From Victivallis vadensis (GTDB lineage: Bacteria > Verrucomicrobiota > Lentisphaeria > Victivallales > GWF2-50-93), in contig CAMCYE010000004.1 of assembly GCA_945883805.1 (NCBI GenBank), forward strand, positions 9,917 to 73,916: a DNA stretch of 64,000 nt, given 5' to 3'. Positions 1,119-32,745 of this stretch are shown here, piece by piece; positions within the stretch are counted from its first letter, which is position 1, and each line of letters starts with the position of its first letter. The notes below the pieces were generated by a model. The model saw nothing but the letters and a program-made list of their open reading frames with translations, had not been told where the DNA came from and made no database searches. Made by a program: the position numbers and the translations under genes.

Positions 1119-1140
1119 ACCTTGCCGGCATCCTTTTTAA

Positions 1141-1209
1141 TGTGGCACAGGCGTCTCGCCTGTTCTTATTTCTTTCTTCTTGAATTACAGGAAAGACGCC
1201 TGTACCACA
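1141..1209. repeat. REPIN-like inverted REP pair
   Basis: TGTGGCACAGGCGTCTCGCCTGT...ACAGGAAAGACGCCTGTACCACA; closely similar copy at 51012-51076. Confidence 0.85.
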
Positions 1210-1255
1210 CTTAAAAATGCCTACGCATCAAACTTTGAAATTCATATATTTGGAT

Positions 1256-1861: not shown

Positions 1862-2042
1862 GGTCGTTTCCTTTCTGTTCAGAGGTTACCTTTGGTATTT
1901 TATATCGACAGCTAACCCTAACCCCTCAAAATTAAATGTCAAAGTTGAATTTTACTTGCTAAAAATGAAGATAACATTATTCTATGTTTTTCCTGTTCGT
2001 GAAAAGTATTCGAATCCATAAATAAATAAACGGAGCCATATC

Positions 2043-3239: not shown

Positions 3240-3279
3240 GGAGGCATTTTTCAAGTTGCCCCTACTGAATACATACGAT

Positions 3280-4506: not shown

Positions 4507-4693
4507 TTATCTTTATCCTCTGTGCTCCGACGCCGAGGCGGGAGTATTCATTGAATTATTTTTCAGGTGGCACTATTGACCCGTAATAGAGATTTAAGAG
4601 CGGAAAAATCAAGAGGGAATTGCAATGTTTTAATTAGGCTCCTTGATTTTTTTTATTTTCAATATCCTTTAAAAGTTAAAAAGGAGGCGACAC

Positions 4694-5620: not shown

Positions 5621-5772
5621 TACGAAAAAATCAAAACAAAAGAATTCACCACTAATCCGCACTAATTTTACACTAACGAATATTTGCTGAGAATTTGCTT
5701 TTGTTGCAAAATCAAATTCTCAGCAAGGATTGTATTTTTAGTTCCTGTAAGTGACCGGTTAGTGCAAATTAG

Positions 5773-5805
5773 CCTGCCAGGGCGTAGCCCCTTGGCGAAG
5801 ACTGG
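5773..5805 (+). repeat. 33-bp CGTAGC..GCGAAG mini-element inside an inverted-repeat host
   Basis: CCTGCCAGGGCGTAGCCCCTTGGCGAAGACTGG splits ATTAG|TGG, the partner of CCACTAAT at ~5649. Confidence 0.65.
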
Positions 5806-5822
5806 TGGTTAAAAATCCTATA

Positions 5823-7079
5823 ATGCCAATCAAATACACAAAAGCCTTCCGCTGGTCTGCAAGGATATTTTTTCTTATTGTCTCCATCCTCCTGATCATG
5901 GCCGGCCCCCTGCCCGTCTGGATGCTGAAAATATTCCAGCCGACCGCAGGATTTATCAGGGAATTCATATTGCTTCCCACATGGATGGCAAAACTTATTC
6001 CCGCATTAAGCCCGCTTTCCTTTTTGTCGTCACTGGAGGCGCATCAGGGAGGCCGTCTGACTGTCCTGTGGATTCTGCCGCCTGCGATACTCGCAGCAGC
6101 GGCGATATTCAAAGGACGTTTTTTCTGCCGCTGGATCTGCCCGCTGGGGACTGTTTACTCTGCCGCATGCACGAAAAATTTCAAAAACCACGTTTTCAAA
6201 AAGAAGCTGTCGGGGTATTTGTTCTGGGGAATAATCTTCTCGTCCGCGATTGGATCCCCCTTGTTTCTCCTCCTGGATCCGCTGTCAACGTTCTCTAGGA
6301 TAAACCTTGTGTTTTCAGGGTCGCTTACACTGGCATCAGTCATACCCGGAATCGTCTTTCCCATATTTCTCATTGCAGGAATAATACAGCCGTTATCGTG
6401 GTGTTCGCATTTCTGCCCGCTCGGACACATGGTCGACCTAATACACAAAACGGACGTCAGGTATTCTGAAAGATTCAGAGGAGAAAGACGTGAAATAATG
6501 ACGGCGCTCCTATTCTCCATCCCTCTGGCCATGTTCGTAAAGAAAAATCCACTGGTCAAGGATGAAGGCTATCCGCTCCTTCCTCCCGGAGCCGGCAATA
6601 AAAACACTTTCTCATCGCTGTGTACAAGGTGCTACGCCTGCGTAAATGTGTGCCCGACAAAAATTCTGGCTGTTGGCTTCCCCGACAACGCCGATGTCGG
6701 CAGATGGTTTGAGCCCGAGATGAACGCATACAGGGGGACATGCCAGGAATCATGCAACAACTGTACGCAGGTCTGCCCGACCGGTGCGATTAAAAAACTC
6801 TCATTTGAAGAGAAACACAATACACAGCTCGGTGTCGCTCAAGTGACCAAATCGAAATGCATCGCCTGGAAAGACGGCGAATACTGCATGGTCTGCGACG
6901 AATTCTGCCCGTACAAGGCAATTGACATTGACAGTTCGGAAAGCGGCCTTGCACGACCGGTCGTCAACCCGGAAATATGCAGGGGATGCGGAATATGCCA
7001 GAACGCCTGCCCCGTAAGGAAAAACGGAGCCGCCATTGTAGTGCACGGCGTAAAGGAACAGAAAAGAATAAGAAAATAA
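5823..7079 (+). CDS. Membrane polyferredoxin (NapH/MauN-like membrane part plus NapG/MauM-like 4Fe-4S domains)
   Basis: TM segments, FCRWICPLG and WCSHFCPLG, several CxxCxxCxxxCP; ATG 5823 preferred because the GTG start overlaps a repeat. Confidence 0.82.
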
Positions 7080-7200
7080 CGTCTGCAACCGACACCGCAT
7101 CCCGGAAAATCAAGATTTCCTCCTTGATAAAAGGCTTTCTCCAGTTAGAATATGCAGGGTAAAAACAATTAAATACATTATAATAATGGAGCAGATACCA

Positions 7201-8073
7201 ATGCCGAAACTATCGCTTGGAATACCGAAGGGCAGTCTTGAAGTGACGACTGCGGAAATGTTTGCAAAAGCCGGATATAAGATACAGATAAGCTCAAGGT
7301 CATATTACCCCTCAATCGACGACCCCGAAATCGAATGCATGCTCATCAGGGCGCAGGAAATGGCGAGATATGTAGAGGAAGGCGTACTTGACTGCGGGCT
7401 CACCGGCAAGGACTGGATAGAGGAAAACAACTCCGACGTGGTGGAAGTCGCCGAACTGGTTTACGGGAAAGTCGGACGCAAGCCGCTCAAATGGGTTCTG
7501 GCAGTTCCGGAAAACTCGAAGATCAAAGGCCCGAAGGATCTTGAAGGCAAGCGCATAGCCACGGAAGTCGTGGGCCTGACCAAGCGCTATCTTGCAAAAC
7601 ACAAGGTGAAAGCATCAGTCGAATTCAGCTGGGGCGCAACGGAAGTCAAGCCTCCGCGCCTCGCCGACGCAATTGTTGAAATAACCGAAACAGGCTCCTC
7701 TTTGAAAGCCAACAATCTCAGAATCATTGACGTCCTCTGCGAAAGCACAACCCGCTTCATTGCGAACAAGGACATCATGAAAGATAAATGGAAACGGGCG
7801 AAGATAGAAAAACTCGCACTCCTGCTCAAGGCAGTTCTTAAAGCCGAAGGCAAAGTCGGGCTCATGCTCAACATACAGAAAAAGAATCTCGACAAGGTGC
7901 TCGGAAAACTCCCCGCCCTTGAAAGACCTACCATTTCCCCTCTTGCAGAAGACGGATGGTGTGCCCTCAATACAATCGTGGACGAACACATCGTCAGGGA
8001 TCTTATTCCAGAACTAAAAAAGGCCGGAGCGTCCGGCATCGTCGAGTACCCTCTGAACAAAATAGTGGAATAA
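7201..8073 (+). CDS. hisG: ATP phosphoribosyltransferase, long form
   Basis: [26 protein letters not shown]-terminal regulatory domain. Confidence 0.95.
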
Positions 8074-8084
8074 TGCTAAAAAAT

Positions 8085-8192
8085 TGAATATCCAATATCG
8101 AACACGGAATATCCAATTACGAAGTGAAGATTAAAACCATGGAATTAATCTCCTTGGATATTGGAAGTTGAGTGTTGGATATTGGGTGTTCG
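8085..8192. repeat. Inverted pair of degenerate heptamer arrays (TATCCAA/TTGGATA)
   Basis: AATATCCAATATCGAAC...TTGGATATTGG..TTGGATATTGGGTGTTC between convergent genes. Confidence 0.7.
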
Positions 8193-8206
8193 AGAAGGAA
8201 TAAAAA

Positions 8207-10168
8207 TCAGAATTTCAGTCCAAATTTCCTGATTTTCCTGTAAAGGGTGCTTCGTCCGACGTTCATGATTTTCGCAGCTTCGCTCATATTGCCGTTTGCC
8301 AGCCTGATCGCCTTCTGGCAGATGGCTTTTTCACTGCTTTCCATATTGAGTTTCTCCTGAAGCAGGGGATCGCTTATCTGCAACTCCGGCGGATCCTTGT
8401 AGAGCAGTGCCATACGGAACTGTCCGGGCAGATCCTTCCAAGTGATAAGTTCCTCCCCGCTGTTGAGCATGACGGCAAACTCAATGGCATTACGGAGCTC
8501 CCTTATGTTACCTGGCCAGGAATACGATTTGAAGTTCTTCATCATTTCCTCATCGACCCCTTTCACCTTCTTACCCATTATTTCGTTGAAATATTCGATA
8601 AAATAACGGACAAATTCAGGTATGTCCTCAACACTTTCGGAAAGCGGAGGCAGGCTTATGGATGAGACATTGAGGCGATAATAGAGATCCTCCCTGAATT
8701 CACCTTTCTCGATGAGAACCGGAATCTCCTTGTTGGTGGCGGCGATAATCCTTATGTTAATCGGGGTTCCTTTACTTTCTCCGATGCGTGTTATGGTGTG
8801 TTCCTCAAGGAGGCGGAGCAGTTTTGCCTGCAGTTCCACGGGCATGTCGCCTATCTCATCGAGGAAGACGGTGCCCTTGTCTGCGAACTCGAGCTTGCCT
8901 ATGCGTCCTCCCCTGCTGGCGCCTGTGAATGCGCCTTCGGCATAGCCGAAAAGCTCGCTTTCCGCAATTTCCCTTGGAATCGCAGCGCAGTTGATGGCTA
9001 CGAAAGGATGTTTTTTCCTGCTGCTGGCATTGTGGATGCTGTGCGCGAAAATCTCCTTGCCCGTACCGCTGGGACCGTATAGGAGGATGTTAACTGAGGT
9101 CTTCGCGGCACGCATCGCCAATTCTTTAGCCATGACAAGATTCGAAGAACGCCCGATAATATTGTCAAAGGTATATTTCGCTTCGGAAACTGTTTCATTG
9201 CTTGTACCGCTTCTTTCACCCTTTTCGTTGAATATCAGTATGCTTCCTAGAAACTCGTCGGCTTCACTGTACAGCGGAACTTTTTCATAAGTGACATCAA
9301 GATGGCGGTCGGAAATGAGGATTTCCATTTTCTTGTCAGTGCAGGCTATCGCGCTCTGTGCAATTTCCTTCACTGAAGGTTTGAAAGATGCAAGATTCTC
9401 CAGATTCTTCTCCTTCCCCCCCCTGTTGACGAAATCAAAAAACTCCATTGCTGCAGGATTCATTTGGCGTATATAGCCATTCCTGTTAATCATGACAATC
9501 GGTTTCAAGTCGTCATTGTATATGCGGGTGAACTGCTTTTTCAAATCTTTGTAAAGGTCTTTAAACCTGGTAACACGCAAATCCCTGTCATAAAGCTGAA
9601 TCAGGAAAAGAATTACAATTCCCAGCAGCAGTGCATCGGTTTCCGGCAGGAGGCCGATAAGCGACAGGTAGCCCTTCAGCGTGCCGTCAATGCCGTAAAA
9701 GGGGGCGGCTGCAGCAGAGAAAGAATGAAACTTCTTAAGAAAATGTTCGGCTCCATGACAGAAGGAGGGCTGTCCGCTCCTGATGGAAAGGGCAATGGCG
9801 TTGGTGCCTGCGTACCTTTCATTGAGAGTTGACGAGGCAATCATCCCCGAAGTTTTAAGAAGTTCCGATATTTCCTGGTTATGTGAGGAGATTTCGAGAA
9901 TCCTGCCTTCGGGAGAACATAAAAGCCAAGCAACCCTGGAAACGGAAATACTCTTCAGTGGCCCGTCTATCAGAGATTTCAACCTGGCGGTGAATTCATC
10001 CTCGGGACGCGGGGGCGCATCTCCTGGGGAGGGAGGCAACTGGCCGCCAAACGGATCCAACCCGAACTCAACCGACCTCAGCCAGCTTTCATAAATACAT
10101 TCCCTGACAGGTGGCTTCTGGCGTTCCTTGACGAAGAGCGCCCAGTCGTTATTATTGGCATATCTCAT
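8207..10168 (-). CDS. Sigma-54-dependent enhancer-binding activator (AcoR-like GAF-PAS-AAA+-Fis HTH)
   Basis: GTNAIAL/GAEHF GAF, GPSGTGKE, ESELFGYAEGAFTGA, WPGNIREL, RSTLYRK. Confidence 0.93.
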   Translation of the reverse strand: MRYANNNDWALFVKERQKPPVRECIYESWLRSVEFGLDPFGGQLPPSPGDAPPRPEDEFTARLKSLIDGPLKSISVSRVAWLLCSPEGRILEISSHNQEISELLKTSGMIASSTLNERYAGTNAIALSIRSGQPSFCHGAEHFLKKFHSFSAAAAPFYGIDGTLKGYLSLIGLLPETDALLLGIVILFLIQLYDRDLRVTRFKDLYKDLKKQFTRIYNDDLKPIVMINRNGYIRQMNPAAMEFFDFVNRGGKEKNLENLASFKPSVKEIAQSAIACTDKKMEILISDRHLDVTYEKVPLYSEADEFLGSILIFNEKGERSGTSNETVSEAKYTFDNIIGRSSNLVMAKELAMRAAKTSVNILLYGPSGTGKEIFAHSIHNASSRKKHPFVAINCAAIPREIAESELFGYAEGAFTGASRGGRIGKLEFADKGTVFLDEIGDMPVELQAKLLRLLEEHTITRIGESKGTPINIRIIAATNKEIPVLIEKGEFREDLYYRLNVSSISLPPLSESVEDIPEFVRYFIEYFNEIMGKKVKGVDEEMMKNFKSYSWPGNIRELRNAIEFAVMLNSGEELITWKDLPGQFRMALLYKDPPELQISDPLLQEKLNMESSEKAICQKAIRLANGNMSEAAKIMNVGRSTLYRKIRKFGLKF

Positions 10169-10227
10169 GAAAACAATATAGTTTTTCTTTCAGGTAAATT
10201 CAAAGTAGGAATTTATTTGTCTGAATT

Positions 10228-10475
10228 ACCTTTGGATATTGGATATTCGCTTTGAATTAGGCGACGTTGCCGCAACTTTTGAACAATCGAATATCGAACA
10301 GCCGAATTACGAATTAGAAATTACGAATTAGAAATTGAAATTAGTTGGAGTTCACGGCCCTGGTCGCCTTTGGCGCTGCCTGAGGCAGGTAAACTTTAGC
10401 GTGTCTTTTTCTCTAAACCTTGGTCTCTCGGCCACTTGGCCTCTCGGGCACTTGGAATCTTTTGATAACTTTGAA
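10228..10475. repeat. Composite repeat cluster: heptamer arrays plus a GGAG-type REP carrying the 36-bp element (10359-10394)
   Basis: GAATTAC/GAATTAG arrays; GGAGTTCACGGC|36 bp|TTTAGCGTGTC; TTGAATTAGGCGRCGTTGCCGCAA shared with 52874. Confidence 0.8.
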
Positions 10476-10487
10476 ATTCCTATACGT

Positions 10488-11549
10488 CTAATTGTTGAGC
10501 CCCAGAAGACATGAGATGATCCTCTCCCTGCCTGTGACAATCATTATCTCTGCAGTCGAGCCCAGCTTGAGGTTGTAGGGTTCATCCGTAATGGCTATTT
10601 CCACAGGATAATAAAAAGTGTCGTTTTTCTTGACGGGCATCTCATCTATTGCCAGCACCTGCCCCTTGAAATATCCGAAATTGTAATAGTTGTAGGAACG
10701 GCTGCTTATCCTCGCCTTCTGTCCGGGGTGAATCTTGTATATCTTTCTTTCATCGACATATGCAACGTACTTTTTCTGCTTAACCCCCGTCATGCGGCAG
10801 AGCAGATCCCCCTTTTGCACATATCTGGAAGGCTTGTACGGCATATGAATAATAATCCCGGCTTCCGGAGCCTTGACAGTGTAATCAGCCAGATGTTTTT
10901 CAAGCGTCTTGAATTCCCTGCCCCTGTTTTCCAGCTTTATTTTAAGAAGCTTCATTTCACTTTCAGCCTGACTGACGATTTTTTCACCCATCCCTTTGCT
11001 GACTTTCTTAAAATCACTTTCAGCCTTTTCAAGAGTCGCCTTATTTTTTATATATTCCACCTCGATATTCTCAAATTCAGTTTTGGAGATTACGTTCCTG
11101 TCAAAAAGGTCTTTGCACCTTTCAAGTTTCCCCACACTTCTGTCAAATCTCTTTCGCGCCTCATCCAGCTCGATTTCAATGTTACGGTAGTGCGTGGGCA
11201 GCGGGTCTGTGTTAAGGAGGGACAATGAATCTTCCTTCACCTTCAACTCCGCCTCTATCTCTCCTATCAAACCCTTAACCGTCTCGATTCTGTCTTCCAA
11301 CTCCGTGGAATCGAGCTTTAAGATGATCTCGTCCTGCTTCACATGCGCACCGTCGTCCTTCAGGATTTCGGTGATTTTCCCGTCAACCATCGATTTGAAT
11401 TCATAATCGTTTATGCCGCCGACTTCTCCAAATGCGAAAACAACATCCTCCATCTTGAATAGCGAAAGCATAAGTCCCGCCAAAACAACAATCAGGACGG
11501 TGATCAGGATAAGCACCCTGAAAATCTTGATTTTTTTGGTCATGCTCAT
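10488..11549 (-). CDS. HlyD-family membrane fusion/secretion protein
   Basis: N-terminal TM, lipoyl-like halves (VDGKITEIL, VKAPEAGII), long coiled coil, YNFGYFKGQV; ATGA overlap with ABC gene. Confidence 0.88.
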   Translation of the reverse strand: MSMTKKIKIFRVLILITVLIVVLAGLMLSLFKMEDVVFAFGEVGGINDYEFKSMVDGKITEILKDDGAHVKQDEIILKLDSTELEDRIETVKGLIGEIEAELKVKEDSLSLLNTDPLPTHYRNIEIELDEARKRFDRSVGKLERCKDLFDRNVISKTEFENIEVEYIKNKATLEKAESDFKKVSKGMGEKIVSQAESEMKLLKIKLENRGREFKTLEKHLADYTVKAPEAGIIIHMPYKPSRYVQKGDLLCRMTGVKQKKYVAYVDERKIYKIHPGQKARISSRSYNYYNFGYFKGQVLAIDEMPVKKNDTFYYPVEIAITDEPYNLKLGSTAEIMIVTGRERIISCLLGLNN

Positions 11550-13492
11550 AAGTCGGCCTTCATTCCGGAATTTTTCATGTTGATATTGGTCTTCCCCATG
11601 ACGGGCTTGAAAACTTCAGCATGCCTTTTCCCGGACAGTCTGGCCTTGTTGGCATCATACTTCTCATCGGGCTCGTACTCATCTTCAAACTCGCCGAACA
11701 CATTATTTTCCGGAAATTCCTTAAAGTCGTCGTCTATATCGTCAATAATCATTTTTCCGGTGATTTTCCTGAAAGCCTTCTCCTCCTGCGACATGTACAT
11801 TTGCCGGTAAACCCCTTCTTCCTTGATAAGTGCCTCATGCGTGCCGGTCTGCTTGATTTCCCCGTTTTCCATGACGACAATCAGATCGGCATTTTTAACG
11901 GTGGAGAGCCTGTGGGCTATTATTATCGTGGTCCTGTTCTTCATGAGGTGGTCGAGGGCGTCCTGCACCAGATATTCGGAGACCGTATCCAGAGCGGAAG
12001 TCGCCTCGTCGAGAATCAGCATTTTCGGGTTGTTCAAAACGGATCTGGCGATGGCGATCCTCTGTTTCTGGCCTCCGGACAGCATGGCGCCGTTCTCGCC
12101 GATTTCCGTCTTGTACCCCTTTTCAAGCTTTTTCACAAACTCCTCGACATTGGCCATTTTTGCGGCCGCCAGTATTTCATCCGGAGATGCATCCGCCCTA
12201 GCATAGGCGATATTCTCCTCAATGGTGCCGCTGAACAGGAAAGGCTCCTGCAGCACTACTCCGATCTTCTCCCTGTAGGATTCCAGGGCGAGGGTTCTTA
12301 TATCGTGGCCGTCGACGGAGATCGACCCGCTGTTGACATCGTAGAATCTCAAAAGGAGATTTGCAATGGTGGATTTGCCCGAACCGCTGGGGCCGACAAA
12401 CGCTATTTTCTGACCCGGGGAAATGTCGAGGGAGAAATGTTTTATGACCGACTTACCGTTATAGCCGAAAATCACGTCTTTAAAGCTGACTCCGCCATTC
12501 ATCTCTTTTAAAGCAACAGGATTCTCGCATTCGACAATCTCGGGAATAGTGTTGAGCAGTTTCATGATTCTTGAAGCCCCGGCCAGACCGTTTGATATGG
12601 TAGTTGAAAGTCCGCTGATGGAGACAATCGGGCCGAGCAGCATGCCGAGATACGTGTAGAACGCCACAAATTCCCCGATAGTCATGGTGCCGTTCATCAC
12701 CATGGAGCCACCGGCGGCAAGAACAACGAGAATGCATCCTATGTTTATCAATTCCGCAAGTATCCAGAGATATACGCCGTTCATGTTTATGTTTATGGTG
12801 AGATCCAGCACGGGTCTCAGCTGCGAGACAAAATTGCGGTTCTCCGTACGTTCCTTCGCAAAAGACTTCACCACCCTCACGCCATTTATCGTTTCAGCGA
12901 GATTGGCGGATATCTCGGACATCTTTTCACTCAAATCAATTTGCTGCGTCTGCATTATCTTCCTGAAATAAATGAAGTTCACAAGCTGCAAAGGTATCAG
13001 TATCAGGCAAATCAGGGCGATTTTTGGACACATCATGAAAAGAACGCCGGTGATAAAGACAATTACGAACGTGTTCATCGCCACGGTTGCCAGACTTGCG
13101 AATATCATCTGTTCGAGTCTTGCGACATCGGAAATAACATTCGATATGAGTTTCCCAGCCCTGTATTCGGTATAAAAACGCAGTGAGAGGTTCTGGAGAT
13201 GCTTAAACAGCTTTTTCCTGATGTCGAACATCAGCCTCTGTGAAATATAAAACAAAAAGTAATGGCTCATATAAAAGAATATTGAGCGCATTGCGTAGAT
13301 AAGCACAATAGAGCCGAGTATCGCGTAAAGCAACCCCAGGTCAGACGCCCCAAGCACCCGGTCTATTATTATTTTCAGCATCCAGGGAAGTACAAGCCCC
13401 AAATTGGCAAACACTATCAGACTGACTATACTGCCCACTATAAGATATCTGTATGGCCTCAAAAGTGTTATGAAATATTTGTTTTTTTTCAT
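11546..13492 (-). CDS. ABC exporter, fused permease/ATPase, with acidic C-terminal tail
   Basis: TMD, GPSGSGKS, LSGGQKQR, ILDEATSALD, IAHRLST; ATG 13492 preferred because TTG 13519 overlaps the predicted sigma-54 start site. Confidence 0.92.
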   Translation of the reverse strand: MKKNKYFITLLRPYRYLIVGSIVSLIVFANLGLVLPWMLKIIIDRVLGASDLGLLYAILGSIVLIYAMRSIFFYMSHYFLFYISQRLMFDIRKKLFKHLQNLSLRFYTEYRAGKLISNVISDVARLEQMIFASLATVAMNTFVIVFITGVLFMMCPKIALICLILIPLQLVNFIYFRKIMQTQQIDLSEKMSEISANLAETINGVRVVKSFAKERTENRNFVSQLRPVLDLTININMNGVYLWILAELINIGCILVVLAAGGSMVMNGTMTIGEFVAFYTYLGMLLGPIVSISGLSTTISNGLAGASRIMKLLNTIPEIVECENPVALKEMNGGVSFKDVIFGYNGKSVIKHFSLDISPGQKIAFVGPSGSGKSTIANLLLRFYDVNSGSISVDGHDIRTLALESYREKIGVVLQEPFLFSGTIEENIAYARADASPDEILAAAKMANVEEFVKKLEKGYKTEIGENGAMLSGGQKQRIAIARSVLNNPKMLILDEATSALDTVSEYLVQDALDHLMKNRTTIIIAHRLSTVKNADLIVVMENGEIKQTGTHEALIKEEGVYRQMYMSQEEKAFRKITGKMIIDDIDDDFKEFPENNVFGEFEDEYEPDEKYDANKARLSGKRHAEVFKPVMGKTNINMKNSGMKADL

Positions 13493-13528
13493 TTTCCGTA
13501 TTATTTCTTTTGTTTGCAAAAACGATGA

Positions 13529-13543
13529 GCATAAAGCATTCCA
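13529..13543 (-). promoter_or_regulatory. Sigma-54 (-24/-12) promoter of the ABC-HlyD unit
   Basis: Minus strand TGGAATGCTTTATGC with exact GG-N10-GC spacing, 36 bp before the ATG; activator gene in same cluster. Confidence 0.7.
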
Positions 13544-13630
13544 TATTAATTATTATTAATATATTCAGTTAATCATCAACGTAATATACATATTCACAAT
13601 AAAAAATCCTTGGAACTTCAATTGACAAGG

Positions 13631-13748
13631 TGTCCCATCTCTGGCACATCATGACGCGTATATTTTCATAATATAATCATAACTTGCTGCAAACATTGAT
13701 GTTATATATATTTTCACAAATGGCACACTCCATTCCCAATATGACACA
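13631..13748. promoter_or_regulatory. Candidate upstream activator sites (TGT-N12-ACA)
   Basis: TGTCCCATCTCTGGCACA (13631-13648) plus degenerate copies ending TGGCACA (13727) and TGACACA (13748); AT-rich spacer to promoter. Confidence 0.55.
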
Positions 13749-13755
13749 CCAGTAC

Positions 13756-13882
13756 TGGATTCGTTGGGCGAAAGAATTTCCGAACCTTTATTAAGACAAG
13801 CAGACGCTTGGCGTTCTCAGGAATGCCGTCTGGTCGGCTCTATGCAATTCTTCTGTAAAAGTCTTTCCACACGAGATTATCA
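13756..13882. repeat. MITE-like element, same family as 18390-18550 and the addB insert at 48328-48415
   Basis: TTAAGACAAGCAGACGCTTGGCGTTCTCAGGAATGCCGTCTGGTCGGCTC...TTCCACA. Confidence 0.75.
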
Positions 13883-13992
13883 GTCAAAAACTACACCGGA
13901 ATTTTTCAGTAAATGCAGCTTTCACAATTCTGCAAATTGTGGAAACTGGCACTTAAACTGATATAGTTTCCCTGAAAAACTATAAATACGGG

Positions 13993-15714
13993 ATGAGTAT
14001 GCGGAATTCGCAAAAAAACATAACGTTCTTGGAAGTCAATTCATCGTATTCACACACGATGCTTTCGTATGGATATCTCCGTGCATACACCGAAAAAATG
14101 CTGTCCGGATGGAACTGGAACCACATCGAGACAACCACCAATGAGGACGGAGATGCCGCCCTCCTGAAAACATTGTCCGTCAGACCGGACGTAGTCTGCG
14201 CCACGTTATACCTTTTCAACCACGAATATACTGTAAAAATCCTCAAGAAACTGAAAAGGCTTCTGCCAGACTGCATGATTTTCCTAGGCGGTCCGGAATT
14301 CCTCGGCAACAATGAGGAATTCCTGCGAAAGAATCCGGAAGTGAGCGCCACAATACGCGGAGATGAAAGCAGTTTCCATTCCCTGCTGGCAAATCTGGAC
14401 AAAAAAGACAAATGGAAAAAGATCCCCGGTGTGTGCTTTGTCCGTAACGGCAGATATTCCGATGCCGGTTTTGCGAAATTCGCAGGCAGTCTTGATGAAA
14501 CCCCCTCACCATATGAAAAAGGACATTACACATCGGGCAGACCTTTCTACCAGATAGAAACTTCCCGCGGCTGCGGAGGGAAATGCAGTTTCTGCACCAG
14601 CGCACTGTCAGACGGCATCGCCTGTTTCAGCATTTCCAGAATAAGAAATGAACTTGAAATCCTGAGCAAGGCTGGCATCCGCGAAATCCGCATTGTTGAC
14701 CGGACTTTCAACGAAGACAAAAAACGCTCGACGGATCTCCTGAAAATATTCAGGCAGTATCCTGAAATAAGGTTTCACCTTGAAATAAATCCGGCACTTG
14801 TCGATCAGGAGATACTGGATGAGCTAAACCTGTTCACGGCGAAACGACTCCATATCGAGACAGGAATACAGACCCTTTGCGAAAAGAGCCTCAAATCGGT
14901 CAAGAGATTCGGCTCTGCCGAAAAAATGCTTTCCGGACTTAAAAAGCTCCGCCACTTGGAAAACGCCGAACTTCACGTCGACCTGATCTCCGGACTGCCG
15001 GAACAGAAATTCAGCGATGTCCTGAACGATGTGAAAAAGCTTATCAAGGTCAACCCCCATGAAATCCAGCTCGAGACCCTCAAGATCCTTCCCGGAACGT
15101 CAATCTCGGTCAATCCGCCGCCTGGGAATGTTTCAAACCCCCTGCCCCCGTATGAAATCCTTGAGACAAGGACAATGACGGCAGGCCAGCTCCAGACGGC
15201 AAAACATCTTTCCAAAATGCTCGATTCATATTTAAACATCCCCAGATTGAAGAACTTATTCAGGTTCGCATTCATCCGGGACAAATCATTCATTGAAAAG
15301 TTTCTCCGGCATCTTGAGACAAATTCGGATCCGATGCAGAAACATCATCTCGACAGAAGACTTCTGATGTTGAAAGACTACGCCGACAAAAATGACACAC
15401 TTCTTGCTGAATCCGTAATTTTCTTCTGGTTATCAGGAGGATTTCCTCCTGATAAATGTATCACGGGCATCCTGCCTGTGACGACAAGAAAAATAAAAAA
15501 TATCCGAAAAGATGAGCCACCGGACGGGAAGAACATTTTCACATCCGCTGAAAATATTTCCCCGTCAAAAATAATTGAAATCGAATTCAGTTTCAACGCC
15601 GCTGATTTATGGCTGGATCCGGAGGCGAAATTGATGAAAGGCAAATTCAAATATCTTTTTTACACAGCACAAGGCAGCAGAGTCATGAGGATTCAGAGTC
15701 ATCCCGAAGGATGA
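13993..15714 (+). CDS. B12-binding radical SAM protein (DUF4080-type)
   Basis: Cobalamin-binding-like N-terminus (LGGPEF), ETSRGCGGKCSFC, VDRTFN, HVDLISGLP. Confidence 0.85.
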   Translation: MSMRNSQKNITFLEVNSSYSHTMLSYGYLRAYTEKMLSGWNWNHIETTTNEDGDAALLKTLSVRPDVVCATLYLFNHEYTVKILKKLKRLLPDCMIFLGGPEFLGNNEEFLRKNPEVSATIRGDESSFHSLLANLDKKDKWKKIPGVCFVRNGRYSDAGFAKFAGSLDETPSPYEKGHYTSGRPFYQIETSRGCGGKCSFCTSALSDGIACFSISRIRNELEILSKAGIREIRIVDRTFNEDKKRSTDLLKIFRQYPEIRFHLEINPALVDQEILDELNLFTAKRLHIETGIQTLCEKSLKSVKRFGSAEKMLSGLKKLRHLENAELHVDLISGLPEQKFSDVLNDVKKLIKVNPHEIQLETLKILPGTSISVNPPPGNVSNPLPPYEILETRTMTAGQLQTAKHLSKMLDSYLNIPRLKNLFRFAFIRDKSFIEKFLRHLETNSDPMQKHHLDRRLLMLKDYADKNDTLLAESVIFFWLSGGFPPDKCITGILPVTTRKIKNIRKDEPPDGKNIFTSAENISPSKIIEIEFSFNAADLWLDPEAKLMKGKFKYLFYTAQGSRVMRIQSHPEG

Positions 15715-15945
15715 CGGATGGATGGATTGTCGGATTACCCGCCTTCGCTAAAATGCTACGGCGCGGCAAGATGGATGATTGGGTTTGAGTTCAAAGAAAA
15801 TCTAAAAGAGTTCCTGTATGCAAAAAACGGAAAAGTTATTTTACGAATTTATCACAGGATTGTTCTATGCTTCTGTCTTTGATACGCAACCATCCAGCAA
15901 TCCAATCATCCCTGGCCGTCCGGCACGGGCAGGCCAATCATCCAT
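15715..15945. repeat. Inverted GGATGGATT/AATCCATCC-type arrays with nested 33-bp element (15738-15770) and CCTG..GGCAGG hairpin (15911-15933)
   Basis: Direct reading of arrays and inserts. Confidence 0.65.
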
Positions 15946-15954
15946 GGGACGGCA

Positions 15955-16893
15955 ATGAACATGAACGGAGAAACAGGGACACCACTTGCCCCGAAACCCG
16001 CTAAGTCGCCGGAACTCACGGCTGGCATGTCATGCAGGGAGGCCGCGCTCCGCTCCTTTGACTTTTATTTTCGGAACTTTTTATGGAATGAGAAAGGGGC
16101 TCGTATCGGAAATGATCCTGAATTCCTTCATTATCTTCGTGTAGCTTCAAAGAGACTCAGGGTCGCCCTCGCTGTTTTCGAAGAATATTTCCCCGAAGAC
16201 AATATTTCCAGTTACAGAAGTGAGTTGAAATCACTGGCGCAGATATTCGGAAAGGCCAGGGATACTGACGTTTACCTGGAATTCCTCAGTGACACGGCCT
16301 CAAAGATGACGAGTCCGGACGAGCTCAGCGTTTTCAACAAATACAAGAACTTTTTCCTCAGGAGGAAAAAATTTCGCCAACGGGCCGTTTTAAAAAAGCT
16401 GGACACGAAAGATTATAAATCATTTGTTGCCGAATTCGCAAATTTCATTTCTCGAAATCTCCCCGCTGAAAACGCAGGCGCTGAAACGCCGGTGTCTGAA
16501 ATCATTGACCTAAAAATAAGGGCAAGGCTTGAAGAACTCATCAAACATTCAGAAAAACTGACCCGCAATTCCTCCGATTCCAAACTCCACAAGTTCAGAA
16601 TTAAATGCAGGAAGCTCAGATATGAAGTGGAGATTTTCCTCGATGTCCCCGGCAATAACTGGGAGGAGTTGGACAGAAGGCTGATCGAACTTCAGCGCTC
16701 GCTCGGCTCGCATCACGACGCAGTGACAGCCGGAAAAAAACTGGCCTCATACATAAGAACACACAAGGAATATTCAAAATCCAGAACTTTGAAAAAATTG
16801 AGGAACCTCCAGAATGAAAGAGCTTCGAAGTTCAGGAATGAATTCTTTGTAATATTTTTTCACATGAAAAAATATCTCAGACGCTGTCTTTAA
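15955..16893 (+). CDS. Stand-alone CHAD-domain protein (putative polyphosphate-binding)
   Basis: DPEFLHYLRVASKRLR, GKARDTDV, LHKFRIKCRKLRY, LGSHHD. Confidence 0.88.
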   Translation: MNMNGETGTPLAPKPAKSPELTAGMSCREAALRSFDFYFRNFLWNEKGARIGNDPEFLHYLRVASKRLRVALAVFEEYFPEDNISSYRSELKSLAQIFGKARDTDVYLEFLSDTASKMTSPDELSVFNKYKNFFLRRKKFRQRAVLKKLDTKDYKSFVAEFANFISRNLPAENAGAETPVSEIIDLKIRARLEELIKHSEKLTRNSSDSKLHKFRIKCRKLRYEVEIFLDVPGNNWEELDRRLIELQRSLGSHHDAVTAGKKLASYIRTHKEYSKSRTLKKLRNLQNERASKFRNEFFVIFFHMKKYLRRCL

Positions 16894-18301
16894 GCCTCTG
16901 AATCACCTTCTGATTCGCCTCGTAGAAGCACATCGCATCAGGAGAGGTGATGACATCCTGCCTTGACTGGTCCATAACCTTCTTCCGCTTGACTGAATCA
17001 CTGAGATATCTCTCGAGATATCTTACAAGTGTCCGCGGACTCAGCTCCTCAAATATGTGCTGTCCGAACTCCTCGACATAATCGGACGCTATCACTGAGA
17101 CCAGCTCCTTGCCCGGAGACTTCATCCCCATGGCCATAAGGAAATCATGAACCATTTCCTGACATGTGATTTCGTCGAAAAACGGAAAGGCAAACCCCTT
17201 GCCGCGGCTTAAAATATTGGCGGGACATTCATAGTTGGAAGCTATGATTACAGTTATATTTTCAGGCAAAACACAGCTTCCCCCGATATTTGTCCTGAAG
17301 TAATACCAGTCAATTTTCCTGGTGTCCACATCATCAAAAAACAGGACAAAGCGTCTGTTCGAACGCTTGCCCAATATTGCAATGAGGTCAACAAGGGGCT
17401 TTTCAAGCTCATGCGGTTCGCAGAGGATGAGGGTGAGGTTCTGGAAATAAAGCGAATAGGAAATTGTAAAGTGGGTTTTCCCAAGTCCGGGAAGACTGGT
17501 TATGAGAAGAGGGAAATTCTCGCCTTTTTCGGAGAAAGCCGCAAGATATTTCCTGAAGAATTCCTTCGCCGAAGGAAAACCGTAGAACTTGCCGACCGGA
17601 CGAACCGGACCGATTTTCGCCGGAAAAAACCTCCCCTCTGAAAAACGAAAAACCCTGTCTCCCGAAAGAAAAGGATCCATTTTCTGGAAACGTTCCTGCA
17701 GTTCTGCAATCGGCACGGTATGCAAATCTATTTTTGAGTCGAATATTTCCGACATTGAAAGCTTTTCCCGGATGAAAGGGGTCAGTCTTGTCAGGGAGCT
17801 TCCGCTTCTGTCCAGGCTGGAAATAATATCCATGTAATCCACAACGAGCTTAATTCCGGATTTGACAAGCCTGTCGCCGTGGGCGAGTTTGAATTTTATT
17901 ATCTCCTCATCCTTTTTTTCGTTGACTAGGCTCTGGTCGAGTGTCGTGGTTTCGATAATTGCGGCAATGAGGATGTCGTTGAAATTCTGTTTTCTGCAAA
18001 GCGCCATCAGGGAATTGATATAATCTATTGAATCCGGTTCAGTCCCTGAAACATAGCTTCTCCTGGAGGCCGTATTCGGGTTTTCACGAAGCAGGTCAAG
18101 TTCAGAGTCTATTGAAATCAATATTTTGAAAAAGAGGGAAAGGAGTTCGCTGTTCCCCAGTTCCTTGATCTTCAACCCCTGTCCGGATATATGCTCAAAC
18201 AGTACATTGAAGCTCGCAAGGGAATCCATTGACAGGACCTTCAGGTCTGCAAGAACAGCCCCTGCATCATTCCCGGAAATTTTTTCAGTTTTTATCGGCA
18301 T
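16877..18301 (-). CDS. P-loop AAA-type ATPase (DUF815-like C-terminal domain) with unknown N-terminal half
   Basis: Walker A SLPGLGKT, Walker B FVLFFDD, IIASN, LSPRT. Confidence 0.65.
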   Translation of the reverse strand: MPIKTEKISGNDAGAVLADLKVLSMDSLASFNVLFEHISGQGLKIKELGNSELLSLFFKILISIDSELDLLRENPNTASRRSYVSGTEPDSIDYINSLMALCRKQNFNDILIAAIIETTTLDQSLVNEKKDEEIIKFKLAHGDRLVKSGIKLVVDYMDIISSLDRSGSSLTRLTPFIREKLSMSEIFDSKIDLHTVPIAELQERFQKMDPFLSGDRVFRFSEGRFFPAKIGPVRPVGKFYGFPSAKEFFRKYLAAFSEKGENFPLLITSLPGLGKTHFTISYSLYFQNLTLILCEPHELEKPLVDLIAILGKRSNRRFVLFFDDVDTRKIDWYYFRTNIGGSCVLPENITVIIASNYECPANILSRGKGFAFPFFDEITCQEMVHDFLMAMGMKSPGKELVSVIASDYVEEFGQHIFEELSPRTLVRYLERYLSDSVKRKKVMDQSRQDVITSPDAMCFYEANQKVIQRLKDSV

Positions 18302-18372
18302 GACGGTAATATAAGGGGATTTCGGAGAATTTCACCTAAAGGATTCATAAGATCCCCCCGATTGCCTTTTAA

Positions 18373-18712
18373 TGTAGCACAGGCCCTGGATTTGCTTGGC
18401 GGAAGTATTTCCGCACATTTTTAAGCCAAGTCGTTCTTAGATCCCGAGTCACATCATGAGCTCGGGGCAGACTCTTGGCGTTCCCGGGAACGCTGACCGT
18501 CTGGTCGGCTCCATGTATTTCTTGTGCGGAAGGACTTCCGCCGAAAGTATCTGGTCGCCGTAGGCGCTGCCATACGCTTGTACGCCTCAGGCGTGCAGGT
18601 AAACATTCTTGCCTGTATCTTCATTTCCAGATGTGATGTTGAGAATACGCTAGGGCGCACAAGTCACAGACACGAAAAACAGAAACTACAGATAGGAATG
18701 TCTGTGTTACTT
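18373..18712. mobile_element. Multiply nested non-autonomous elements: REPIN > 36-bp element > MITE > hairpin
   Basis: Each layer resolved by comparison with simpler copies elsewhere in the window (see findings). Confidence 0.75.
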
Positions 18713-18763
18713 TCAAGAAGAAGACTCTTTTTTTTAATGATCCCTCCTGAAAACAAGATGAAC

Positions 18764-18796
18764 AAAAAAAAAGCCGGAAGGTTAATTCCGGCTTTT
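18764..18796 (-). terminator. Rho-independent terminator of pnp
   Basis: AAAAGCCGGAA-loop-TTCCGGCTTTT with a long U tract on minus strand. Confidence 0.8.
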
Positions 18797-18823
18797 CCAT
18801 TTAGATTTAAATTAAATCAGGAC

Positions 18824-20929
18824 TTATTCCTTGTCGCCCATTTCCGCAAGGGCGGCTTTGCGACTGAGGCGGATTTTCCCGCGGTCGTCAACACCGATGA
18901 CTTTGACGGTTATCATATCGCCTTCCTGGCAGATGTCGGTAACCTTATTCACCCTGTAATCGGCCATTTCGGAAATATGGAGAAGTCCGTCCTGTCCGGG
19001 AATCAGTTCGACGAATGCGCCGAATTCCTTGATGGACCTGACCTGACCACGGTAGATTTTTCCGATTTCAACTTCGGCGGTTATGTCCTGGACAGCTTTT
19101 GTCGCTGCATCGAGGGCATCCTTGTTTGCGGCGAAGATCTTGACGCTTCCGTCATCTTCAATGTCAATCTGTGCGCCTGTTGATTCGGTAATGCCACGGA
19201 TAACACTTCCACCGGGGCCGATGAGGGCTCCGATTTTCTCGGTGTTTATCTTAAGGCTCACAATACGTGGGGCATATTTGCTCATTTCGGTTCTTGGAGC
19301 CGAAATACAGTCAGTCATCACTTTCAGGATCTTCGTCCTTGCTTCACGGTTGCGGAGCATGGCTGCATAGAGGAGATCAATTGAAACGCCGGCAATCTTG
19401 AGATCCAGCTGGAATCCGGTAATTCCCTTCGGGGTTCCGCACACCTTGAAATCCATGTCGCCGAAGTGATCTTCAGCGCCTATGATGTCGGTGAGGAGAA
19501 TGTTTTTGTCCCCTTCGGAAATGAGACCGCATGAAATTCCGGCAACCGGGTCTGTTATCGGTACGCCCGCATCCATGAGGGCAAGGGTTCCGCCACATAC
19601 GCTCGCCATTGAAGTCGAGCCGTTTGAGGCCATTATTTCAGAAACACATCTCACCGTGTAAGGATAATCGACCGGGATAACCTGTGCGAGCGAACGCTCA
19701 GCAAGGTTTCCATGACCAATCTCCCTGCGTCCGGGACCGGAAATTCTTCCGACTTCACCGACACTGAAATTCGGGAAGTTGTAATGCAGATAGAAATTTT
19801 TCATGTCTGATCCGCCTGTGATGGGATCGCTCTCCTGAGCATCGCGTCCTGCACCAAGGGTGACTATCACAAGCGCCTGGGTTTCACCGCGGGTGAAAAG
19901 GCCTGTTCCATGAACTCTGGGAAGCACGCCTACCTCGGAAGTTATGAGACGGAGTTCATCCATCCCCCTGCCGTCGGGGCGGATGCCCTTTTCAACAATT
20001 GCGAACCTGACAGTCTTCTCGACGAGATGGTCGAAACACATCTTGAGTTTCATATCCAGTTCTTCAACAGTTTCCTTGAACTTGGCGGTAATCTCGGCTG
20101 AAAGTTCCTTGAAGATAACGCCCAATGCATTCTGTCTGTCCTCTTTTCCAGTCATGAGGCATGCGCTGTCTATTTTTCCCTTGCAGAAATTATGGACGGC
20201 ATCCTTTACATTTTCCGGAACGAGATGGAGGGTCGGTTCTTTTTTCTTTCTTCCGCCGACTGCCGCAAGTTCTTTCTGCGCCTGAATCTGCTTTTCAACA
20301 ATTCCATTCGCGAAAATCAATGCGTCGCGTAAAAGCTCTTCGGAGCATTCCTTCGCATCGCCTTCGATCATGATGACTTTTCCGGCAACGCCCGCATAAA
20401 CAAGGTCAAGAGTGCTAGTGGCCATTTCAGTATGGGTCGGGTTCGCTACAAATTTTCCGTCGATACATCCGACGCGCAGTGCGCCGATAGGACCGCGGAA
20501 CGGAAGATCCGACAATGTCAGAGCCACTGAGGCGCCAAGGATTGTCAGCACATCGGATTCGTTTTCGCCGTCAGAACTCAGAAGCAGAGCCTGTATCTGG
20601 ATTTCATCGAAAAATCCTTCCGGGAACAGAGGCCGTACCGGGCGGTCAGTCATCCTGCATGTCAGGATTTCTTTTTCGCTGGGTCTTCCTTCCCGCTTTA
20701 TATAGCCACCGGGGAAACGGCCCGCCGCACTGTATTTTTCACGGTAGTCCACCTGTAACGGGAGAAAATCGGTGCCAGCTTTCGCCTTGCCCGAACAGCA
20801 CGCCACAAGTACCACAGTTTCACCGAGTTGAAGTATGCAGGATCCGTTGGCAAGATTCGCAAGTTTTCCGGTTGAGATCTCAATGATACGGCCGTTGCCG
20901 ATATCAACATTCACTTTTTTTTCACTCAT
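18824..20929 (-). CDS. pnp: Polyribonucleotide nucleotidyltransferase
   Basis: PGGYIKREGRP, RREIGHGNLA, SNGSTSMASVC, DHFGDMDFKV, KH and S1 domains. Confidence 0.98.
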   Translation of the reverse strand: MSEKKVNVDIGNGRIIEISTGKLANLANGSCILQLGETVVLVACCSGKAKAGTDFLPLQVDYREKYSAAGRFPGGYIKREGRPSEKEILTCRMTDRPVRPLFPEGFFDEIQIQALLLSSDGENESDVLTILGASVALTLSDLPFRGPIGALRVGCIDGKFVANPTHTEMATSTLDLVYAGVAGKVIMIEGDAKECSEELLRDALIFANGIVEKQIQAQKELAAVGGRKKKEPTLHLVPENVKDAVHNFCKGKIDSACLMTGKEDRQNALGVIFKELSAEITAKFKETVEELDMKLKMCFDHLVEKTVRFAIVEKGIRPDGRGMDELRLITSEVGVLPRVHGTGLFTRGETQALVIVTLGAGRDAQESDPITGGSDMKNFYLHYNFPNFSVGEVGRISGPGRREIGHGNLAERSLAQVIPVDYPYTVRCVSEIMASNGSTSMASVCGGTLALMDAGVPITDPVAGISCGLISEGDKNILLTDIIGAEDHFGDMDFKVCGTPKGITGFQLDLKIAGVSIDLLYAAMLRNREARTKILKVMTDCISAPRTEMSKYAPRIVSLKINTEKIGALIGPGGSVIRGITESTGAQIDIEDDGSVKIFAANKDALDAATKAVQDITAEVEIGKIYRGQVRSIKEFGAFVELIPGQDGLLHISEMADYRVNKVTDICQEGDMITVKVIGVDDRGKIRLSRKAALAEMGDKE

Positions 20930-24434: not shown

Positions 24435-26162
24435 TTGGAATTGATAATAAGCAACCTGCGGATACCCGTTGAGAAGGACGGGATTGACGAATATGTGAAA
24501 GCCGCTTCACAAAAGCTGGAATTTGGCGCGGAAACCATAAAATTCTCCCGGATGCTCAGCAAGTCGCTCGACATGTCCGACAAAGATCAGTTCTTCTATG
24601 ATGTCTCAGTAGTTGTCACTGTCCCGGACAATTTCGACAACAGGCAAGACTTCCCTGCATATAATGCATGTAATTGCAAAACACAAGAAACGGTCGCGAC
24701 AAGCCCTGGTCGCCTTTGGAGCCGCCATATGCGGGTAAACACAACCCTCCATAATGCCGGAACAGATAAAAGTGGAGGGCGAGGCTTGTCCGAGCCGCAG
24801 TTATCTATTCACCCCTTAGAAAAAACTGAAAAACCGGCAAACATCAAGGAACGCCCCATAATCGTGGGGTTCGGTCCCGCCGGGATGTTTGCCGCACTAG
24901 AACTTTTGAATTATGGAATTAGGCCAATAATCTTCGAACGCGGTAAAAAGATAGAGGAGCGCGACATTGATGTTCAAAAGTTCGTCCGGGAAAGGGAGCT
25001 GGACCCGGAGTCGAACATCCAATTCGGCGAAGGCGGCGCTGGGTCATACTCGGACGGAAAACTGTTTTCAAGAATCAGGAATAATTCCGGACACGTGAAC
25101 AGGGTGCTCGACACTCTGATAAAGTTCGGCGCGCCGGAAGAAATAGGTTACATCAGCAAACCGCATCTCGGCACAGACGTGCTGTGCAGGATAGTCCGCA
25201 ACATACGGAATCACGTCCTTGAGAGAGGCGGCGAAATACATTACAATTCAAAACTCACCGACATCATCTCATCTGACGGGAAAATCCGGGGAGTGGTGGT
25301 GAACGGTGAAAAGGAATACCTTTCTTCAACAGTCTATCTTGCGGTCGGGCATTCTGCGCGCGACACGTTTGAGATTCTCCACGGCAAAGGCGTCGCCATT
25401 GAGCAGAAGCCGATTTCCGTAGGCGTCAGGGTTGAGCATCCTGCTGAAATCATCAATCTCATAAGGTACGGCTACAAATACAAGGACTTCCGCGGCATAG
25501 GGGCGGCCACGTATTCCTTCAACCATACCGACCGGAAAACAGGAAGGGGAGCATACACGTTCTGCATGTGCCCCGGTGGCGAGGTGGTGAACGCCTCATC
25601 TGAAAAGGGCATGCTGGTTCTAAACGGCATGAGCTACTCCCGCAGGGCTTCGCCATTCTCGAATTCGGCGATTGCAGTGACCTGCCGGACGGATGATTAT
25701 AAGACCGCAAGCCCGCTGGCGGGAATTGAATTCCAAAAGGATATGGAGCGAAGGGCGTTCAACGCAACAGGGGGAACTTGGAGGGCTCCAGCACAGAATC
25801 TGATGGATTTCCTGAACCGAAAAAACTCCCTCGAGCTAAATGAAAACTCCTACAAGATGGGCGTCGCATCCGTCAACATGAATGAAATCCTGCCCGGATT
25901 CGTGTGCGAATCTCTCGCGACCGCATTCAACAAATGGAAAGAGGATTATCCTCTCTTTGTTTCAGAACATGCCATTTTGCTCGGCGTTGAAACAAGGACT
26001 TCCTCCCCGGTAAAAATCATGCGCAATGAAAAATATGAATCCGTGAACATGGGGAACCTGTATCCGATAGGCGAAGGTTCCGGCTATACCGGCGGTATAA
26101 CAAGTTCGGCTGCGGATGCCATAAAGGCAGTGGAACTCAGCGCTTTATCCCATTTGCAGTAG
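24435..26162 (+). CDS. FAD-dependent oxidoreductase with an in-frame repeat insertion
   Basis: VGFGPAG, QFGEGGAGSYSDGKL, FCMCPGG, ETRTSSP, GEGSGYTGGITSSAADA; insert at ~24668-24800. Confidence 0.88.
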   Translation: MELIISNLRIPVEKDGIDEYVKAASQKLEFGAETIKFSRMLSKSLDMSDKDQFFYDVSVVVTVPDNFDNRQDFPAYNACNCKTQETVATSPGRLWSRHMRVNTTLHNAGTDKSGGRGLSEPQLSIHPLEKTEKPANIKERPIIVGFGPAGMFAALELLNYGIRPIIFERGKKIEERDIDVQKFVRERELDPESNIQFGEGGAGSYSDGKLFSRIRNNSGHVNRVLDTLIKFGAPEEIGYISKPHLGTDVLCRIVRNIRNHVLERGGEIHYNSKLTDIISSDGKIRGVVVNGEKEYLSSTVYLAVGHSARDTFEILHGKGVAIEQKPISVGVRVEHPAEIINLIRYGYKYKDFRGIGAATYSFNHTDRKTGRGAYTFCMCPGGEVVNASSEKGMLVLNGMSYSRRASPFSNSAIAVTCRTDDYKTASPLAGIEFQKDMERRAFNATGGTWRAPAQNLMDFLNRKNSLELNENSYKMGVASVNMNEILPGFVCESLATAFNKWKEDYPLFVSEHAILLGVETRTSSPVKIMRNEKYESVNMGNLYPIGEGSGYTGGITSSAADAIKAVELSALSHLQ

Positions 26163-32599: not shown

Positions 32600-32745
32600 T
32601 TTTAAAGGCTCACACTAAAGTGTGAACTCCAAATTTTGGAGTCCAGCCTTTAGGCTGTTCTTTAGACACGCTAAAGTTTACCTGCACGCCTGAGGCGTAC
32701 AAGCCTCAGGCAGCGCCAAAGGCGACCAGGGCTGTGAACTCCAAC
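32600..32745. repeat. GGAG-type REP cluster with the 55-bp form of the 36-bp element (32676-32730)
   Basis: CACACTAAAGTGTGAACTCC, GGAGTCCAGCCTTTAGGCTG, GACACGCTAAA|55 bp|GCTGTGAACTCC. Confidence 0.8.

Follow-up and report, generated by a model that had tools for sequence, protein, structure and literature searches.

IS1397 is reportedly found in palindromic units, a published case of IS insertion into REPs, and the SDRs of heterocystous cyanobacteria, credited to Elhai et al. in 2008, are said to be 21-27 nt long and confined to some cyanobacteria. IS630 elements target CTAG and duplicate TA, while the miniature derivatives of IS200/IS605, termed PATEs, depend on single-strand HUH transposition, carry subterminal hairpins and generate no target duplication. 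In the parts of the literature drawn on here, REP and REPIN elements are treated together with the RAYT (TnpA_REP) transposases (Bertels & Rainey 2011, PMC3116915; Di Nocera et al. 2013, PMC3733652), REPs are described as insertion targets of IS elements (Tobes & Pareja 2006, PMC1525189), SDR5 is reported to be precisely inserted inside HIP1 (PMC4390886) and Nezha is listed among the MITEs (PMC3733652).

In the genome studied here, the spacer 3' of pnp holds small selfish repeats, each inside another. The window, the whole stretch of 64,000 nt that was analysed, corresponds to positions 9917-73916 of contig C4 in assembly G000, which comprises 3.48 Mb in 192 contigs with 47.9% G+C and a completeness of 90.86%; contig numbers without a genome name refer to this assembly. 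We put at roughly 75% the probability that three unrelated non-coding mobile elements entered this spacer in succession, each one landing in its predecessor.

A nest of three repeats downstream of pnp

In this spacer, a REP contains a second element, here called B, and B contains a MITE. The nesting is genuine, involves families with separate copies elsewhere, and amounts to three insertions and not five. A preliminary description of the window had proposed five hairpin elements nested in one another, and all five features are found where it placed them. The 19-nt insert that it listed and the MITE are both inside B, and neither is inside the other, so that the arrangement has the form of a tree, three levels deep or at most four, and not of a chain of five. 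The features are as follows.

16877..18301, minus strand: 474-aa ORF without a Pfam family, downstream of pnp; its upstream region borders the nest
18374..18384, plus strand: REP 5' half, consisting of the GTAG tag and the hairpin 5' arm; the match to contig C156 of the related genome G009 stops exactly at 18384
18385..18388, plus strand: start of element B (CCTG, 4 nt), whose TG at 18387-18388 is the target that the MITE duplicated
18389..18551, plus strand: IS630-type MITE in its long form of 163 nt (G ATTTGC ... GTAT C); the imperfect terminal inverted repeats measure ~28-32 nt
18431..18466, plus strand: 36-nt hairpin segment defining the MITE long form, at the boundary between 5' arm and loop of the inner MITE hairpin
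18467..18515, plus strand: palindromic, high-copy MITE core; depth peak in Logan contigs
18552..18604, plus strand: remainder of element B, ending GGTAAAC; the other TG of the duplication is at 18552-18553
18576..18596, plus strand: 19-nt module in the second hairpin of B, its position ambiguous by 2 nt
18605..18616, plus strand: REP loop and 3' arm, completing the reconstructed REP 23-mer
18688..18710, minus strand: second REP of the same family, inverted, 71 nt from the first; its reverse complement is a family member
18769..18796, minus strand: pnp terminator hairpin, an 11-bp perfect stem and T run, conserved in relatives
18824..20929, minus strand: pnp, polynucleotide phosphorylase, with RNase_PH, PNPase, KH and S1 domains

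The outer layer is a REP

When 18374-18384 is joined to 18605-18616, the resulting 23-mer is identical to an uninterrupted copy at C132:5756-5778 (0 mismatches), which confirms the two REP halves proposed earlier; their inverted partner at 18688-18710 is likewise real. With up to 1, 2, 3 and 4 mismatches allowed, the assembly yields 6, 9, 25 and 33 copies respectively, compared with a hand-estimated expectation of ~0.08 for a random 23-mer at up to 4 mismatches. The unit has a GTAG head and a 6-bp stem, ACAGGC/GCCTGT, in which the variants GGC/GCC and GAC/GTC switch together so that pairing is kept, and inverted pairs are found at C12:4280/4326, C83:13832/13878, C108:4031/4077 and C135:1244/1281.

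Twelve Y1_Tnp matches are present in the assembly, on contigs C40, C48, C25, C23, C19, C13, C14, C90, C45, C9 (two) and C96, each with its own, different flanking family of hairpin repeats. Three of five proteins tested pass the NCBIfam REP_Tyr_transpos model (NF047646, cut-off 80) with 92.9, 91.2 and 81.3 bits; the other two, at 75 and 58.6, fall short. The highest-scoring RAYT (C14:32613, 92.9 bits) is flanked by REPs sharing the tag and stem of the window REP and having a different loop, and no RAYT gene flanked by exactly the window's family was seen in G000. Beside the RAYT genes on C90 and C9 are two other hairpins, uninterrupted there but occupied by B at other loci. Each relative has 7-17 Y1_Tnp matches, making this an unusually RAYT-rich lineage. 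The outer layer resembles described REP and REPIN systems in its GTAG tag, compensated 6-bp stem, tens of copies, inverted doublets and the presence of RAYTs flanked by related REPs.

Element B inserts into hairpins

Without the MITE and one copy of TG, 18385-18388 joined to 18554-18604 forms a 55-mer, made up of a 36-nt core and a 19-nt module, that matches C22:17090-17144 and C13:425-479 at 94.5% over 55/55 nt (E 2e-18). The earlier proposal of a 36-bp element that begins CCTGG at 18385 and splits the REP is thereby upheld, with full-length family members at these two loci. Fifty-seven copies of B were found in G000, comprising 31 of 35-37 nt, 2 of 39 or 42 nt, 16 of 53-55 nt and 8 of 73-75 nt. 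The core begins with CCTGGT and ends with GTAAAC; between them are first a 4-bp and then a 5-bp hairpin, separated by a C, and the tail is 6-7 nt across copies. Among 40 distinct 36-mers, stem positions 19 and 29 pair as TA in 15 and as CG in 25, with no mispairs, and the loops are nearly free to vary. Four further copies in the window, at 1077-1118, 10359-10394, 24705-24740 and 32676-32730, measure 42, 36, 36 and 55 nt and are hosted by three different hairpins.

Within the REP, B lies exactly between the 5' arm and the loop, and 36-nt copies occupy the same position in REPs at C79:5080-5115 and C8:20684-20719. Filled and empty REPs differ by exactly the insert, B leaving no target duplication. 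At least eight hairpin families in G000 host B in their loops, always in one orientation relative to the host; a MITE is again found within B on contig C16, and the suggestion that these families target one another is in keeping with both observations. The base preceding B is C at 53/55 sites in the assembly. The junction is enclosed by a perfect stem (5 bp or more, loop of 3-9 nt) at 19/55 sites, compared with 158/3000 random positions; since many other hosts of B are imperfect hairpins, this strict test gives a lower bound. B is thus found in hairpin loops more often than chance would allow.

The longer forms of B carry an 18-19-nt module, a hairpin plus GTAAAC, at one or both of two sites and in opposite orientations. 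The first site follows CCTGGTCGC; the second is in the second hairpin of B, where the reverse complement of the module is the window's 19-nt insert. The insert reported earlier within the 36-bp element is accordingly genuine, and it recurs in other B copies. At both sites the module follows GC, one base short of the top of the 5' arm, a geometry close to that of B in REPs. Its two fixed sites and opposite orientations indicate a real module with placement rules of its own; a search for free copies outside B-like contexts found no convincing ones. Eighteen genomes of the family were scanned, and among the matches listed B exceeds 36 nt only in G000, G007 and G008.

Some copies of B are rearranged. 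Dimers of B halves occur tail-to-tail at about 49434-49478 of the window (C4:59350-59394) and head-to-head at C96:8903 and C48:5228, implying that the two hairpin halves can act as separate units. At C114:8210, C173:2616 and C18:1508, the arms on the two sides of B belong to different host hairpin families, which suggests recombination between repeats that bear B.

Comparison of B with described elements

B resembles a REPIN in being akin to a miniature doublet of two tagged hairpins. It differs from REPs and REPINs in being nearly unchanged across phyla, the REP families here being genome-specific and each having its own RAYT, and in lying inside the loops of other REPs, with no B-flanked RAYT among 38 Y1 loci. 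The portion of Di Nocera et al. (PMC3733652) used for comparison describes long and short loop variants within REP families, as opposed to one insert common to many. As in the cases of IS elements found within REPs, the REP hairpins of this genome are hot spots for other mobile DNA; unlike the full IS with its own transposase, B is a gene-less 36 nt that makes no target duplication.

A parallel in size is with the SDRs, which are reportedly likewise tiny, gene-less, precisely inserted into short repeats, nested and not known to have an enzyme. B is set apart from that description by its 36-nt length, its two GC hairpins, its GTAAAC tail and its occurrence under 8 phylum labels. PATEs offer a further likeness: hairpins lie near both ends of B, inverted terminal repeats and target duplication are lacking, and B keeps a single orientation with respect to a target able to form single strands. 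Unlike IS200/IS605 elements, B has no fixed tetra- or pentanucleotide target, and a matching TnpA was not recovered. Literature searches on SDRs, REP/RAYT and MITE/IS630 gave no description of B, or of nested REP and MITE loci in Victivallales, and a search with 10-11-nt strings of B gave only primers. B is apparently undescribed.

The innermost layer is an IS630-type MITE

The MITE splits B between two CTGG direct repeats, as first proposed, its extent being 18389-18551 and its length 163 nt against the 161 given originally. BLAST found 67 loci of this family in G000, the best copy being C3:29611-29770 (95% over 161 nt), and 33 near-full copies could be aligned, again with imperfect terminal inverted repeats of ~28-32 nt. 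Both ends were recognised in 27 copies, whose flanks have CTAG as their consensus (left 13/27, right 8/27). The flanking 4-mers are identical in 7/27, including four non-palindromic direct repeats: CTGG at the window copy, CCAG twice and CCGG. The window copy has CTGG on both sides, with TG duplicated instead of TA; the duplication is of the central dinucleotide of CNNG.

An element on contig C12 of genome G011 has the ends of this MITE around a 142-aa DDE_3 remnant (PF13358, E 9.8e-10, 38.9 bits, cut-off 28.6), which is not an intact transposase. The shared ends indicate that the MITE family derives from an IS630-type element. When the G011 protein was used as the query, no IS630 transposase matching the MITE was found in the 90.86% complete G000 assembly. 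Like other MITEs of the IS630/Tc1-mariner type, the family has terminal inverted repeats, a CTAG-like target, a 2-bp duplication, a length of ~125-163 nt, no gene and ends shared with a DDE_3-bearing element; it differs in that the window copy duplicates TG and not TA, that long and short forms differ by a 36-nt hairpin and that one remnant is read in frame within a protein.

This 36-nt hairpin at 18431-18466, previously noted as an extra in the window copy, is indeed absent from the copies near 13790 and 48340, but it is not private to the locus, being present in 18 MITE copies, 17 detected by BLAST at 89% or more and that on C86 by pattern. All 18/18 occupy one and the same site within MITEs, with GCCAAG before it and CAGAC after it; none was found outside MITEs in G000, the four remaining BLAST matches having E of 0.25 or more. 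The other layers do occur independently, REP at 33 loci, B at 57 and the MITE at 67; this hairpin is never free. The MITE probably arrived in its long form, so that the hairpin is not a separate event here. A tree of 32 MITE copies with the segment removed, omitting the C22 copy with its large deletion, has 0 starred branches. The long-form copies are not clustered on it (12 changes against a shuffled mean of 11.1; 419/500 shuffles as low), which could reflect repeated gain and loss of the inner hairpin, or simply no signal.

Other MITE copies in the window have different surroundings. That at 13770-13880, corresponding to the copy at 13790, is a diverged short form between ABC-transporter-like and radical-SAM-like ORFs. 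At 48310-48420, within the ORF at 45957-49079 on the minus strand, a decayed short form is read in frame, adding ~25 residues to a 1040-aa protein of the PD-(D/E)XK family. The insert in this protein is present in G000, in G007, where it is shorter, and in G002, where it is partly duplicated, and not in G009, G004 or G001. The same peptide segment also matches in frame in other long frames of G002 and G007 (641-1297 aa) and in one 59-aa frame of G002.

Related genomes and the order of insertion

Alignment of the region 3' of pnp across relatives, which had been advised as a means of finding intermediate states, yielded such a state. The G009:C156 sequence matches 16877-18384 of the window at 85%, after which the loop and 3' arm of the REP follow. 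As the match breaks on the last base before B and the REP resumes, the REP is intact there, a state with the REP only. Beginning ~10 nt beyond this REP there is similarity to the window sequence that follows its own REP; pnp is on another contig of G009. In G007, whose pnp part is 90% identical, and in G002, the same genes flank the site, with no REP, B or MITE between them and gaps of ~85 nt and ~14 nt respectively, against ~400-430 nt in the window. The stretch immediately 5' of the 474-aa ORF start is conserved in G007, G002 and G009.

Among the genomes of this genus, gene alignments are 77-88%, and all intergenic gaps corresponding to window positions 1-20000 differ. The gaps at 5622-5840, 8072-8205, 10205-10498, 13749-13953 and 15692-15961 are filled with repeat families and differ between genomes of the same genus.

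The REP-only state in G009 supports the REP having come first and B second. The polarity of B, a gain and not a precise loss, is read from one orthologous pair, G009 and the window. Nesting was originally held to give an order of insertion; this is so for REP and then B, but the order of events inside B is not readable from nesting.

The most probable history comprises three steps. A GTAG-tagged REP of the kind moved by RAYTs was established ~70 nt upstream of the next gene, with its inverted partner 71 nt away. B then entered the boundary between the arm and the loop of the REP, after a C and without a target duplication, in a manner that may involve cutting and joining of single-stranded B by an HUH-type nuclease, supplied in trans, at the C atop an extruded hairpin; at some time B also gained its 18-19-nt hairpin-plus-GTAAAC module. 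Finally, the long-form, IS630-derived MITE inserted into CTGG in the head of B, duplicating the central TG.

Alternative histories of the locus

B might instead have been placed on the REP by copying or conversion when it already contained the module and the MITE, or a whole unit of REP plus B might have been so placed, in which case the nesting would give no local order. We regard this as unlikely. At C16:29781-29962 a second B, of the 55-nt form and in a different host hairpin, contains a MITE at the same head position, so that B may have reached the window already carrying its MITE; a possible third and degenerate case is at C49:8235-8393, and the mixed-arm hairpins described above are consistent with recombination between such composites. 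The C16 MITE is, however, a decayed short form, and the composite is diverged (~87% over 133 nt), while the nearest relatives of the window MITE, C3 (95%) and, on the tree, C16:41890, lie outside B. The MITE could plausibly have hit B more than once, independently, since its CNNG target is present in the head of B.

Selection for a structured element seems far less probable than this. Such a multi-hairpin block, put together from repeat modules, would act as a cis-regulatory or RNA-stabilising structure in the 3' region of pnp or the leader of the next gene, and REPs elsewhere are reported, in the part of Di Nocera et al. cited here (PMC3733652), to affect mRNA stability and termination. Modelled as single-stranded DNA, 18372-18618 has a strong predicted fold closed by the REP stem (-52.1 kcal/mol, z -5.18, 0/200 shuffles as good), and the stems of B covary. 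Against this, every layer of the nest is a dispersed repeat family and G007 and G002 have short gaps with none of these elements. In a search of Rfam 15 with window positions 18000-19000 and 12 B loci from other phyla, nothing reached the gathering score, the weak matches being centred on the pnp terminator or due to chance; and none of the 21 Logan runs listed is recorded as RNA. The nest, lying between a terminator and the upstream region of the next gene, is tolerated selfish DNA and not a built-in regulator.

The integrity of the assembly, on which the preliminary description was to be checked, can be judged from the same runs; 20/21, belonging to 15 lake or freshwater studies, contain all or part of the stretch. 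In four of these runs, each from a different study, single contigs match with 0-1 mismatches and cover the left side (18150-18464 in two runs, 18150-18418 and 18263-18413) and others from the same runs, again with 0-1 mismatches, the right side (18515-18950, 18510-18950, 18513-18885, and 18523-18605 with 18576-18887), so that both sets of outer junctions are bridged. None of the listed contigs crosses the MITE core at ~18465-18510, and the two halves of the nest are therefore joined by the MAG assembly only. A divergent sequence is the source of one X1 contig in which 18226 is joined to 18551 (side 24, with 9 mismatches over 77 nt). That repeat-induced mis-joins in the MAG created the apparent nest, as the very high k-mer depth of the core and the want of a listed contig over it might suggest, can practically be set aside, since REP, B and the left end of the MITE, and likewise its right end, B and REP, are each in single contigs from four studies, and since the two half-REPs and two half-Bs rejoin to known intact family members.

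B in other lineages

The exact 36-nt pattern of B, with 30 fixed bases, is present in 11/18 genomes of the family, including G000, against 0-1 for reversed-pattern controls; G009 and G010-G014 are relatives free of B. In a species-level genome collection it occurs in at least 120 stretches, 80 of which are in MAGs titled Opitutaceae, Verrucomicrobia, Kiritimatiellota, Lentisphaerota or Victivallales, Planctomycetota, Omnitrophota, Desulfobacteraceae or Thermodesulfobacteriota, Nitrospirota, and Pseudomonadota. Among the matches listed, B occurs nearly unaltered in MAGs under eight phylum labels. Five genomes of other lineages hold 26, 38, 115, 133 and 1 copies, each genome with its own loop signature and controls at 0. 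In other phyla, C precedes B at 79/79 sites (AC 28, GC 25, TC 15, CC 11), and 12/79 pass the strict hairpin test.

In a Verrucomicrobia MAG, 3-4 copies of B follow one another head-to-tail with no spacers (locus L212, G043:C150:5894-6047), and three copies are so arranged in L128; units spaced by a 10-nt direct repeat also occur. The length of 36 nt invites a reading of B as a CRISPR repeat, which was rejected as B occurs singly or in arrays that lack spacers.

B is also found in seven stretches on four IMG/VR contigs, three of which appear to represent the same Mu-like phage, judging by the identical 5,482-nt spacing of their two B copies. One such contig, L226 (G048:C1:11800-18100), has two B in the same orientation 5,482 nt apart, and the ~5.5 kb between phage copies encodes GemA and Amidase_3, 6/8 ORFs being without a family. 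When plasmid and phage collections were searched by BLAST with the 36-mer, no match covered 80% of the query and all had E of 0.1 or more.

How B may move

The small size and wide sharing of B imply that it must depend on a conserved enzyme or process. Loci of Y1 transposases in G000 and five relatives contain no B units (0/38; 112,566 nt), G000 has no head-tail pair of B at the kilobase scale, and the ORFs between paired B in G041, G042 and G043 are not transposase-like, judged from their translations. Nor was a fixed 4-5-nt target found, only the preceding C being constant. With no enzyme, target word or bounded gene recovered, we give about one chance in three to movement of B as single-stranded DNA by an HUH-type enzyme acting in trans.

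A broader and comparably tentative reading, which we would not yet favour, is that B and its 18-19-nt half-module represent a class of ultra-small, gene-less mobile DNA that would spread between phyla and insert, as a single strand, beside C at the tips of extruded hairpins through a trans-acting nuclease. REP loops, other copies of B and MITE hairpins would then all be targets, and nests such as that of the window would result.

Conclusions

The locus is a clean natural record, across one genus, of a site with no REP, with a REP only, and with REP, B and MITE together. It shows that the non-coding repeats of bacteria prey on one another, with hairpin tips as preferred landing sites. Such nests also break short-read assemblies and inflate intergenic variation among strains. 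Finding the enzyme of B would bear on how REP-like DNA moves, a question of four decades' standing, and could yield a compact, structure-directed DNA insertion activity.
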